A DNA stretch of 64,000 bases from positions 192,001 to 256,000 of the forward strand of contig CAXXIN010000007.1 in NCBI GenBank assembly GCA_963665275.2, read 5' to 3'. Positions 48,337 to 52,192 of this stretch are shown piece after piece; positions within the stretch are counted from its first letter, which is position 1, and each line of letters starts with the position of its first letter. The translations under genes and the position numbers were made by a program. The DNA is from Negativicutes bacterium. Lineage in GTDB: Bacteria; Bacillota; Negativicutes; UBA1444. The notes under the pieces are model-generated. The model was given only the letters and a program-made list of their open reading frames with translations. It searched no databases and was not told the origin of the DNA.

Positions 48337-48447
48337 TTATTGGTGCGCCAACAGCCACTGTACCAAAACTGCGAGTCCTACCAGGACCCATACCAGCATT
48401 CAGGGACGGCAATAATTCTTCACGAACTCACCGATGCGAGCAAACAT
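48337..48447 (-). CDS. Candidate 36-aa CxxU membrane selenoprotein (in-frame UGA at 48400-48402)
   Basis: GAGGAG RBS; MFARIGEFVKNYCRP(UGA)MLVWVLVGLAVLVQWLLAHQ-TAA; hairpin GGGTCCT-GGT-AGGACTC starting 10 nt after the UGA. Confidence 0.62.
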
Positions 48448-48672
48448 GGCGTCCAACTCCTCTTTTGATTTGCAAAATTTCATACAGCTTCTTTCAAATT
48501 ATATATGAGGTAGTCAGGGATCACAATAGAGCCTCACGTTAAATTTAAGAGGCTGTTTTATGCTGGCGTTGACTCTTTTCATAATAAATTGGAAGGAATT
48601 AGAGCAAAGTGAGGCGAAGAATATTCTATTATCGAATATCAAAATAAATCAAACAGATGGGAAGGTGGAAAA

Positions 48673-49794
48673 ATGTCCCTGCGCGGAAAAATTCAGTGGC
48701 TATCATTTGTCTTGGTTCTCTTACTAGCAACCACAGTGCCTATGCAATCGACTGCAAATGCCTGCTCTTTCATCCAAGTCGTCGCCCAAGACGGAACCCG
48801 GATTACCGGTCGAACCATGGAGTTCGGCGTTGATATGAAACCGGCATGGGTGGTGACGCCCGCGGGAAAGGAGTTTACCAGCCCTGCGCCGGAAGGATAC
48901 CGGGGACTAGCCTGGAAAACCAAATACGGTTCTGTGGCAGCTCATAACTTTGGTGAGCAAACCATGGCGCTGGACGGAATGAATGAAAAAGGCCTGGTCG
49001 TCAGTGGACTCTGGTATGAAAACGACATGAAGTGGAATGATCCGGCCGATTCCAGCGGCAAGCCGGTTCTATCCCATGCCTTATTGATATCCTGGCTGTT
49101 GGGGAATTTCGAAACGACGGCCGAAGTCGCGAAAGCCGTCAAATCAGTCACCGTTTATGGGCAGCCTATCGCTTCGATGGGAGGAGCAATCCCCCCTCTG
49201 CACTTCGCCGCGCAAGACGCTTCAGGCGGCTCTATCGTCATTGAATGGGATCGTGGCGCCGTCAACGTTTATGATAACCCTCTGGGTATCATGACCAACG
49301 CGCCTAACTTTCCTTATATGATGACGAATCTGCGAAACTATGCCGGCCTCAATGCGGAGCAATGGAGTGCAACTCAATTCAATGGGGTCAAGGTTGTTCC
49401 AACGGGTCATGGAGCCGGCATGTTCGGCTTGCCCGGCGATATCACCCCACCCAGTCGATTCGTTCGGCTTGCCGTTCTGCGGCAATTTGCCGACCCGGCT
49501 CCCGATGCGGCCAATGCGCTGAAACTCGCGCGCCATCTGCTGAACTCCGTCTATATCACGCGGGGAACCATCGTGGACAGGAATGCAACCGGTGCGGTAA
49601 CGGCAGCGGAAAGCACCCAGTGGACGGCCTATTACGACCTGACCAACCGGGCGCTCTACTTTCAAACCTATGACAATTCGACCTTGCGAAAAATCGACCT
49701 GAAAGCGATTGATTTCAAAAGCGCCAATCATCAATCCATCAATTTGTCCTATGAAAACGAAACGATCATTGATGTTACAGGCCAAATCAAGTAA
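48673..49794 (+). CDS. Exported choloylglycine hydrolase/penicillin V acylase family Ntn-hydrolase
   Basis: Signal peptide ending ANA, then catalytic Cys (CS...GRTMEF); DGMNEKGL, MTNAP, LPGDITPPSRFVR, TQW. Confidence 0.9.
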   Translation: MSLRGKIQWLSFVLVLLLATTVPMQSTANACSFIQVVAQDGTRITGRTMEFGVDMKPAWVVTPAGKEFTSPAPEGYRGLAWKTKYGSVAAHNFGEQTMALDGMNEKGLVVSGLWYENDMKWNDPADSSGKPVLSHALLISWLLGNFETTAEVAKAVKSVTVYGQPIASMGGAIPPLHFAAQDASGGSIVIEWDRGAVNVYDNPLGIMTNAPNFPYMMTNLRNYAGLNAEQWSATQFNGVKVVPTGHGAGMFGLPGDITPPSRFVRLAVLRQFADPAPDAANALKLARHLLNSVYITRGTIVDRNATGAVTAAESTQWTAYYDLTNRALYFQTYDNSTLRKIDLKAIDFKSANHQSINLSYENETIIDVTGQIK

Positions 49795-49971: not shown

Positions 49972-50055
49972 TGGTGCGGGCGAGAGGACTTGAACCTCCA
50001 CGAGTTGCCCCGCCAGATCCTAAGTCTGGTGCGTCTGCCGTTCCGCCACGCCCGC
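49972..50055 (-). tRNA. tRNA-Leu(TAG)
   Basis: 84-nt cloverleaf with long variable arm, anticodon loop CTTAGGA, encoded CCA. Confidence 0.96.
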
Positions 50056-51181: not shown

Positions 51182-52192
51182 TTATTTGTCGGGCGTTATC
51201 GAGCCATGCGGCACCGCCAGGAAAATCAACGAACAATTGGCATAATCGCCGGATTGCAGCAGCGCAACCAAATCGTAGGCGACTCCTTGTACCACGCCAA
51301 CGCCGGATACGCTGGAAAAATTCGGGTACATCAAGGCTGCAGTATTCAGATAGGCCGGAGTCGCAGTTGAACCTGCCGTAATCGAAGTCGGCGCCCAGGC
51401 GGTTTGCGCACCGGCTGCCTGAATTGTGAGAAACTGCGTCACGTTTAATGTGCTGGTATACGGCGGTTTGCCATCAATTGCCCCAATAGCGGTATTGGTT
51501 GTGCTCCAGCCGTAATTATTGGTTCCATCGCCGAAACTGAGTGCTGCGGCCGGCGAGAAAGACCACTTGAACCCAGAACTATAGGCGGGCGTAGCAAATC
51601 CTTCTGATCCGGTCACCATGAAATTCAGGTCAGCTGTTTTGGAATTCAGTTGGCCATTTGTACTGTTGATGACTATCGGCACTGAAAAATATGCCGTATG
51701 AGCGGCATACGATTGATATGGGGTTTGAGTGCTATTGTTGGCTTTATTAGTCAAGTCAATACTGTTGGGATTGTAATTCTTATTGTTCTTGTCACTGGAT
51801 TGAACCCAGGAGTTGTTCGGGTTGTTCAAGCCGATTTGCACGGAATGAAAAGCAAAGCCGCTGCTGCCGGTCGCTTTCCCTCCGCCACCGCTGCTGTCAT
51901 TAGAACCAGTGATCCCCTTCAGCCAAAACGATTCGACGGCAGTGGGCGTGTTAGGAATTTGCGACCCGGAAAAGCCTTTCATGATGTCGTTCTTTTTTGC
52001 GGGATCGCCGATATAAATCTCCCATGGGGTCATGTTGATAATATTTAGCACATTCAGCATATTCATCGTCGGTTTATTATACTGTACCTGGGTATAAGCC
52101 ATGATGCTGGCGTAGGGAGCATTGGCCGAGACCAGGCTGCTAAAAGCAAACACAAATGCCATCAGGCAATAGGCCACCGTTCTTTTAAGCAT
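51182..52192 (-). CDS. Secreted hypothetical protein (336 aa, S/T/N/G-rich)
   Basis: Signal peptide (MLKRTVAYCLM...VSA), GAGGAG RBS; no recognisable family. Confidence 0.75.
   Translation of the reverse strand: MLKRTVAYCLMAFVFAFSSLVSANAPYASIMAYTQVQYNKPTMNMLNVLNIINMTPWEIYIGDPAKKNDIMKGFSGSQIPNTPTAVESFWLKGITGSNDSSGGGGKATGSSGFAFHSVQIGLNNPNNSWVQSSDKNNKNYNPNSIDLTNKANNSTQTPYQSYAAHTAYFSVPIVINSTNGQLNSKTADLNFMVTGSEGFATPAYSSGFKWSFSPAAALSFGDGTNNYGWSTTNTAIGAIDGKPPYTSTLNVTQFLTIQAAGAQTAWAPTSITAGSTATPAYLNTAALMYPNFSSVSGVGVVQGVAYDLVALLQSGDYANCSLIFLAVPHGSITPDK

Follow-up and report, generated by a model that had tools for sequence, protein, structure and literature searches.

The stretch of DNA analyzed in this work comprises 64,000 nucleotides (nt) of a Negativicutes bacterium (contig CAXXIN010000007.1 of assembly GCA_963665275.2, positions 192,001 to 256,000), and is referred to here as the window. 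Between tRNA genes of the window, on the minus strand, lies a small open reading frame (ORF) with a UGA codon in frame; read directly, and translated with TGA as selenocysteine (Sec, U), it gives MFARIGEFVKNYCRP-UGA-MLVWVLVGLAVLVQWLLAHQ-UAA. Downstream of it on the same strand follow a near-consensus promoter, tRNA-Gly(gcc), and the genes for trigger factor, ClpP and ClpX. An earlier inspection of the letters alone (the sequence-only reading) had pointed out this ORF as a candidate membrane selenoprotein with a CxxU motif and a hairpin resembling a bacterial Sec insertion sequence (SECIS); its coordinates, the GAGGAG sequence, the UGA, and the hairpin of 7 base pairs (bp) with a 3-nt loop 10 nt past the UGA were all correct when the sequence was read again (Table 1). 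From the analyses presented here it is very probable that the small ORF is a real Sec-decoding gene, and with the same high confidence we propose that it represents a new, apparently Sec-only family of tail-anchored selenoproteins of 30-36 residues, in which the SECIS element would be contained within the codons of the transmembrane helix.

The TGA codon was confirmed by independent assemblies. Runs of three different studies yielded contigs that span the ORF and agree with it throughout (0 differences), and for this reason a sequencing error is excluded; in contigs of relatives four variant sites were observed, all of them synonymous third positions that leave the TGA unaffected.

Table 1. 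Coordinates of the small ORF and of the features associated with it in the window
Feature	Position	Strand	Remarks
Promoter-like site TTGTGA-17 nt-TATAAT	48498..48526	-	about 50 nt upstream of the start codon; 10/12 consensus matches, a consensus match only
Shine-Dalgarno (SD) sequence GAGGAG	48457..48462	-	9 nt 5' of the ATG; read directly
Whole ORF	48337..48447	-	15 codons, in-frame TGA as codon 16, 20 codons, TAA
Cys13-Arg14-Pro15-Sec16 motif	48400..48411	-	TGC CGT CCC TGA; Cys, Pro and TGA invariant among homologues
In-frame TGA	48402-48400	-	followed by a 10-nt spacer (48399-48390) and then the stem
SECIS-like hairpin GGGUCCU-GGU-AGGACUC	48373..48389	-	starts 10 nt 3' of the UGA; arms GGGTCCT (48389-48383) and AGGACTC (48379-48373), loop GGT (48382-48380)
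Hydrophobic C-terminal segment, residues 17-36	48340..48399	-	putative single transmembrane helix, from hydropathy
tRNA-Gly(gcc)	48284-48210	-	downstream of the small ORF

Homologues and coding pattern around the UGA

The region was found by DNA search in eight genomes of the same genus (g1), and in all of them C-x-P-TGA-ATG is in frame as judged by eye. In addition, a protein profile was searched against the six-frame translations of 401 genomes of the class, with stops read through. The gene was detected in 10 of the 12 genomes of g1, counting the window's own, and in two other families, represented by five genomes of genus g44 and one genome of genus g10; every homologue recovered in this search has exactly one in-frame TGA. 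Order-wide searches placed the gene in 10/13 genomes for the window's order (g1 10/12, g2 0/1), and in five of the six g44 genomes for the order of g44, where it was not found in the other 34 genomes; in g10 it is present in one of two genomes. A sample of 400 further genomes from the phylum, which spans 278 genera if that of the window is included, yielded no match at E <= 0.003. The collection-wide pattern scans accepted TGA, TGC or TGT at the critical codon. When one genome per species was scanned, 12 loci were obtained, all true homologues from metagenome-assembled genomes of uncultured Negativicutes and all with TGA (12/12); the scan of metagenome contigs gave 13 loci, three of them unrelated, and the ten true homologues carry TGA (10/10). 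Altogether, 24 distinct homologous sequences were collected, that is 23 unique sequences plus one paralogue, from three Negativicutes genera and from metagenomes. A GGAGG-type SD sequence precedes the start by 6-13 nt in all three genera and in the paralogue.

The paralogue is a diverged copy in the g10 genome (G020, contigs C6 and C30; L092/L093) that is split over two contig ends. It reads MRLWKTLRNFCSP-TGA-IIIYVVLLALLIIFYLMK, has one additional codon before the hairpin and ends with TAG; its stem is a perfect 7-bp helix, UAGUGCU/AGCACUA, and it is flanked by a polymerase IV-like gene and by a pair of genes resembling a helix-turn-helix protein and an ADP-ribosylglycohydrolase (all named by eye). 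Several weaker matches were set aside. Those in genus g52 (L055, L063-L066) correspond, by eye, to an alternate frame of an apparent transporter permease gene; the weak stop-free matches L058, L059 and L061 either do not show the arrangement of start, helix and SD sequence or lie across other ORFs; among the metagenome matches, L095 and L103 are high-GC sequence in a long alternate frame, and L104 has TGT within a long enzyme-like ORF. The class-wide matches L060 and L067-L070 were left out of those examined. A further match, L057 (genome G381, minus strand, around 1501-1545; E-value 3.8e-4 per genome), is intergenic, directly after a 465-aa gene, and reads ...ENFIKNYCRPSMII..., with Ser replacing Sec; it has neither a start codon nor a hydrophobic helix, and could be a chance match or a decayed relic of the small-ORF family.

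The internal codon is TGA in 24/24 distinct sequences and in none of them TGG or TGY, in contrast with the terminal stop, for which all three codons are used (TGA 10, TAA 9 and TAG 4 in the 23 unique sequences; TAG in the paralogue). The Cys, the Pro and the TGA of the C-x-P-UGA motif are invariant in 23/23 unique sequences and in the paralogue, and the codons for the two amino acids vary synonymously (TGC 12 and TGT 11 for Cys13; CCC 18, CCT 4 and CCA 1 for Pro15). The pairwise differences at first, second and third codon positions are 1056/735/1505 for the ten codons before the TGA and 1101/690/1592 for the sixteen codons after it; therefore on both sides third positions differ more than first, and first more than second. 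The ratio of nonsynonymous to synonymous differences (pN/pS) has the same value, 0.43, on either side of the TGA, and in the first three codons after it the differences by position are 241/0/363, a pattern typical of coding sequence. Beyond the TGA, 18-20 codons follow without a stop in 23/23 sequences, and the single TGA is the only stop in the frame, whereas the other two sense frames have 41 and 15 stops. A protein encoded on the antisense strand was also considered and rejected, the antisense frames being open in only 10-15 of the 23 sequences.

Hairpin, selenocysteine machinery and gene neighborhood

The hairpin that follows the UGA in the window has seven pairs, one of them G-U, and the same bases code for W-V-L-V-G-L of the hydrophobic helix. 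To analyze its conservation, 24 sequences (20 of them distinct) were aligned without gaps; the seven pairs amount to 140 cells. Standard pairs occur in 140/140 cells; in controls with slid partners only 46-54% of the cells pair. Two stem pairs are altered on both sides and three vary by wobble: pair 9-17 alternates between C-G (12 sequences) and G-C (8), pair 5-21 is found as G-C, G-U and U-A, pair 6-20 as G-U and A-U, and two further pairs as U-A or U-G. None of 500 shuffles reached the observed covariation score. The swap from C-G to G-C combines a synonymous change (GTC to GTG) with a replacement of Gly by Ala (GGA to GCA). Furthermore, synonymous sites within the stem are frozen, given that Leu codon 6 is CTG in 23/23 sequences and Leu codon 9 is CTC in 22/23, whereas Leu codons outside the stem use 4-5 different codons. 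By inspection of the alignment, as opposed to a formal phylogenetic test, there appear to have been at least some six independent substitutions, all of which kept the pairing.

In a 2026 review of prokaryotic selenoproteins (PMC13188914), the bacterial SECIS element is modelled as an upper stem of 4-16 bp capped by an apical loop of 3-9 nt, with a G in one of the first two loop positions that is usually followed by G or U, a distance of 16-37 nt from the UGA to the apical loop, and a minimum free energy (MFE) of -7.5 kcal/mol or lower. The candidate hairpin agrees with all four of these constraints. Loop and stem (3 nt and 7 bp) are within the limits; the loop is GGU, GGC or GUU in 20/20 distinct sequences, that is G first and then G or U, and together with its closing pair (U-GGU-A) it fits the pattern N1-G-[G/U]-N-N2. 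In 23 sequences the loop lies 17 nt from the UGA (a 10-nt spacer and an arm of 7 nt), and for the paralogue this distance is 20 nt. The hairpin of the window has a free energy of -9.2 kcal/mol; 25-nt segments have MFE values from -8.3 to -12.8 kcal/mol in 20/20 distinct sequences, and the bare 7-bp hairpin is at or below -7.5 kcal/mol in 18/20.

The genome of the window has SelA, SelB, tRNA-Sec (anticodon tca) and SelD; selA, selB and selD share a contig, where about 14 kb at most separate them. In this genome selD (G000 C14:37646) and a formate-dehydrogenase-like gene (C7:469100) each have an in-frame TGA and then a hairpin. The element of selD, in which the spacer is 9 nt long, the stem has 7 bp and the loop reads CGGGU, resembles that of the small ORF: both have an in-frame UGA, 9-10 nt, a 7-bp stem and a small G-containing loop. 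Of the 16 genomes bearing the small gene, 15 yielded SelA. One g44 genome (G132, 96% complete) has no small gene, and the syntenic site past its 6S RNA gene shows a clean gap of about 200 bp; at this site (L118, around 1990-2040) the end of the 6S RNA and its terminator run straight into the upstream region of the next gene. SelA, SelB and SelD were not found in G132, and its tRNA-Sec gene is retained, so that the apparent co-loss of the small gene and the Sec machinery is ambiguous. The sequence-only reading had itself listed what would speak against a selenoprotein, namely Trp (TGG) at the critical codon in homologues, a sequencing error, a genome without Sec machinery, or no conservation past the UGA, and none of these was encountered; the conserved TGA, the coding signature, the covarying hairpin that it had proposed to look for and the Sec machinery support its interpretation.

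The genes that surround the small ORF vary. In g1 there are tRNA-Leu or other genes upstream, and tRNA-Gly and tig downstream; in place of the promoter-like site of the window, most relatives have the end of a tRNA-Leu gene 27-100 nt ahead of the small ORF (in five relatives the distance is only about 27-100 nt). In g44 the neighbors are aspS (identified by eye), 6S RNA and a beta-eliminating lyase gene, and the small gene ends in a strong terminator of its own; in two g44 loci (L076, 2003-2182, and L075, 4067-4245) it lies about 100 nt downstream of the 6S RNA (RF00013, 108 bits). In g10 it is flanked by an M20 peptidase gene and an AhpC/TSA gene. The family tends to adjoin genes for stable RNAs, which are highly transcribed, and could share transcripts with these. 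In the window, a gene of the choloylglycine hydrolase family (48673-49794, plus strand; PF02275, E = 1.8e-60) is encoded opposite to the small ORF and separates it from tRNA-Leu(tag) (49972-50055); it looks like an insertion specific to this genome. A 336-aa ORF further away (51182-52192, minus strand) has a signal-like N-terminus, is rich in Ser, Thr, Asn and Gly, and has no Pfam match at E <= 1e-5. A search with Rfam gave two tRNAs and chance-level matches, and no family over the small ORF.

Predicted product and alternative explanations

The homologues have 30-36 residues, with Sec at residue 12-16. The 11-15 N-terminal residues are positively charged (net +1 to +3) in 16/16 homologues, and their helical hydrophobic moment, 0.48-0.94, is within the top 1-14% of shuffles in 17/17 sequences. 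After the Sec, 347 of 368 residues are hydrophobic (16 positions), and the mean Kyte-Doolittle hydropathy of the first 18 residues of the C-terminal segment is 1.8-3.2 in 16 homologues; the tail past the hydrophobic stretch has 0-4 residues and a charge of 0 to +1. Given this charge pattern and the well-established positive-inside rule, a tail-anchored peptide with the N-terminus in the cytoplasm is predicted.

According to the mechanism that we propose, the ribosome would start at the ATG preceded by the SD sequence and translate 15 codons, making a short, positively charged amphipathic segment that ends in Cys-x-Pro, and would then encounter the UGA, with the 17-nt hairpin beginning 10 nt further on (7 bp and a 3-nt loop with G in first position, U(GGU)A). 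Acting as a bacterial SECIS, the hairpin would recruit SelB with Sec-tRNA(Sec), and the UGA would be decoded as Sec. Translation would proceed through the hairpin, whose bases would also encode the core (W-V-L-x-G/A-L) of a hydrophobic helix of 18-20 residues. The product would be a tail-anchored peptide that exposes C-x-P-U at the cytoplasmic end of its membrane helix, most likely a membrane-bound selenenylsulfide redox centre or a centre that binds soft metals or metalloids, and it would act on its own or within a membrane complex in which it is a small subunit. The insertion of Sec, the insertion of the peptide into the membrane, its topology and its chemistry are what we infer from sequence; for a redox or metal function of the CxxU centre our confidence is much lower than for Sec decoding. 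We also favor, by a modest degree, the complete picture in which these peptides are Sec-obligate, tail-anchored mini-selenoproteins of 30-36 residues, the smallest described so far in bacteria, with a SECIS embedded in the helix and C-x-P-U at the cytoplasmic face.

Several observations weigh against this interpretation. Hairpins of this kind are not infrequent: a comparable one follows 1,149 of the 143,633 TGA triplets of the genome (0.8%) when the criteria are loose, and 145 (0.1%) when they match the strictness of the candidate. The folding z-score is weak, -0.57 for the window (local 51 nt) and -1.03 for g44, and the MFE fold of g44 does not contain the hairpin. Since the hairpin is not rare by itself and the z-score is weak, the case rests on the comparison across sequences; that the arrangement goes beyond chance follows from its recurrence in 24 distinct sequences and from the compensatory changes that the stem shows among them. 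A consensus scan also flags the hairpin of the window as terminator-like, with the tail CAGTTTTGGT, and in every sequence there is an ATG, GTG or TTG within 1-6 codons after the UGA. One genome that carries the small gene (G196, 87% complete) yielded no SelA, SelB or SelD. No conserved gene neighbor that could hint at a function was observed among the g1, g44, g10 and paralogue loci; the neighbors differ in every lineage, and thus the small gene stands alone, with no partner indicated. Finally, the Cys homologues that the sequence-only reading had expected did not appear in the 401 class genomes or 401 phylum genomes searched with stops read through, in the pattern scans of species genomes and metagenomes, or among 1.84 billion representative proteins; their absence carries little weight, because protein libraries under-represent tiny ORFs. 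The protein search returned a single match, the 168-residue entry P0002, which does not count as a Trp or Cys homologue: it is a locus of the G005 type (g1) with both TGAs translated as W, a gene-calling artefact in which some pipeline evidently applied the TGA=Trp code to this organism.

The start-like codons past the UGA bear on an explanation in which the locus would hold two mini-genes, a 15-residue peptide that ends at the UGA and a hydrophobic peptide of about 20 residues translated by termination-reinitiation, the hairpin having some other use. Hydrophobic peptides of this size exist in bacteria; in g1 the UGA is directly followed by ATG (15 of the 23 unique sequences), and the presence of a start-like codon in all sequences leaves reinitiation some probability. 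In g44, g10 and the paralogue, however, the codon after the UGA is ATA, ATT or ATC (8/23 unique sequences plus the paralogue), so that in these nine sequences an Ile codon stands where the coupled start would be, and the first canonical start lies 5 codons further on in G074 (g44) and 6 in the paralogue. The codons before that start keep the coding pattern, with 0 second-position differences, and these Ile codons together with the 241/0/363 pattern are a strong argument against two coupled ORFs. Moreover, no SD-like sequence precedes the second part, and two mini-genes would leave unexplained why the internal stop is always TGA when the terminal stops are of all three kinds, why both parts constantly share one frame, and why a hairpin that would hinder initiation 10 nt past the supposed start is maintained by compensatory changes. 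We consider this explanation unlikely.

The resemblance of the hairpin to a terminator fits, in turn, with a leader peptide, that is, a 15-codon ORF in which stalling or slow termination at Pro-UGA would make the hairpin, governed by the position of the ribosome, an attenuator or terminator for tRNA-Gly, tig, clpP and clpX. These genes are directly downstream in the window, and slow termination at Pro-stop contexts is a property of known arrest peptides. The genes downstream differ, however, among the three genera and the paralogue, the tRNA-Gly of g1 has its own promoter after the ORF (11/12 consensus matches), the T-rich tail is not conserved among homologues, and the region past the UGA, open in all the unique sequences, evolves as coding sequence; a role as leader peptide is in consequence highly improbable. 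Slightly less remote, and still very unlikely, is that the UGA is read by a near-cognate tRNA (Trp or Cys), stimulated by the hairpin and free of selenium, or that the locus is a structured non-coding RNA in which the frame is incidental. In favor of these it can be said that selenium insertion is itself deduced here, and that one public entry, P0002, gives W at both TGAs, though as an artefact. Against readthrough, TGA is an ordinary stop in these genomes and ends this very gene in 10 of the 23 unique sequences; a dedicated Sec machinery and other selenoprotein genes with UGA are present, and the geometry of the hairpin agrees with the SECIS model and with the native selD element. The codon-position pattern and the conservative replacements among hydrophobic residues speak against a purely non-coding element, as does the Rfam result. 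With respect to type I toxins, in which a small hydrophobic peptide is paired with an antisense RNA, a conserved C-x-P-UGA and a SECIS are, to our knowledge, not among their features. Decoding of the UGA as Sec is the reading that we maintain.

Relation to known systems and significance

Different parts of the predicted peptide have counterparts in other systems. The eukaryotic selenoproteins SELENOK and SELENOS also combine one transmembrane helix with a Sec on the cytoplasmic side, but they are about 3-6 times longer, their Sec is near the C-terminus, their SECIS is in the 3'-untranslated region, and their sequence is unrelated. Small membrane-associated proteins of the AzuC type are similar in size (about 30 residues), in their amphipathic or hydrophobic character and in being missed by gene callers; we know of none that contains Sec. 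The CGPC motif of thioredoxin, at the N-terminus of a helix, resembles C-x-P-U in front of the membrane helix, and the likeness is limited to motif and position: 30-36 residues are too few for a thioredoxin fold, and no Pfam match was found. VhuU, from archaeal [NiFeSe] hydrogenase, has about 25 residues, and like the small ORF it is a very short Sec peptide encoded separately. It differs in that it is archaeal, a split-off C-terminal piece of the hydrogenase large subunit with a UxxC metal-binding motif and an archaeal-type SECIS, and in that it has no membrane helix; no hydrogenase gene adjoins the small ORF.

In the review cited above (PMC13188914), VhuU is listed as a selenoprotein subunit, and CxxU is described as a common redox motif; the small ORF has this motif in common with the CxxU selenoproteins GrdA, SelW-like and AhpD-like. 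The same source includes a MerT-like selenoprotein (PF02411, C/SxxU) that is likewise a membrane protein and is thought to bind soft metals; in contrast with the peptides described here, it has several transmembrane helices and belongs to a defined Pfam family, and the small peptides do not match PF02411. As in other selenoproteins with a SECIS within the coding region, decoding of the small ORF is expected to depend on selA, selB, selC and selD. Compared with them, the small ORF is limited to 30-36 residues and has no globular fold, its Sec is directly before the hydrophobic helix, and the SECIS takes up about one sixth of the ORF and encodes the core of the helix.

For the peptide of the window NCBIfam gave 0 families; among nine members of the family the only hit was AzuC (E = 0.12, non-significant, in 2/9), and the best Pfam match had E = 0.022, in 1/16 members. 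The 2026 review (PMC13188914) tabulates 119 families of prokaryotic selenoproteins, none of which is a comparable small membrane peptide, and in the literature on small and membrane selenoproteins of bacteria, supplementary tables aside, no description of such a peptide was found. The decoding mechanism is a known, bacterial one, and the protein is a new family, in which very small size, a membrane helix, a SECIS that apparently doubles as helix core and the lack of Cys counterparts would form an unusual combination.

Genes of this type fall in a blind spot of annotation, because ordinary gene callers stop at UGA and ignore ORFs of 15 codons. In the BSepDB paper a minimum length of 200 nt is given for predicted ORFs, and in deep-Sep candidates are confirmed through Cys-containing homologues. 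A Sec-only gene of 93-111 nt would be hard to detect by approaches limited by ORF length or based on Cys homologues, and therefore more genes of this kind may exist.

If our interpretation is correct, the small ORF would be a minimal natural system for Sec insertion, in which codon 12-16 is the UGA and a SECIS of only 17 nt serves at the same time as the core of a transmembrane helix, and a clear example of RNA and protein constraints acting on the same bases. It would also place a selenol, surrounded by hardly any protein, on the surface of the membrane, where the C-x-P-U peptide could function as a minimal membrane-bound site for redox reactions or for the handling of metals or metalloids. 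Given that synthesis of the full-length product requires Sec-tRNA, the small selenopeptide could, in addition, serve the cell as a gauge of its selenium status. A family of this kind would be relevant to membrane redox chemistry, to metal and metalloid handling in anaerobes, and to the design of small selenopeptides.

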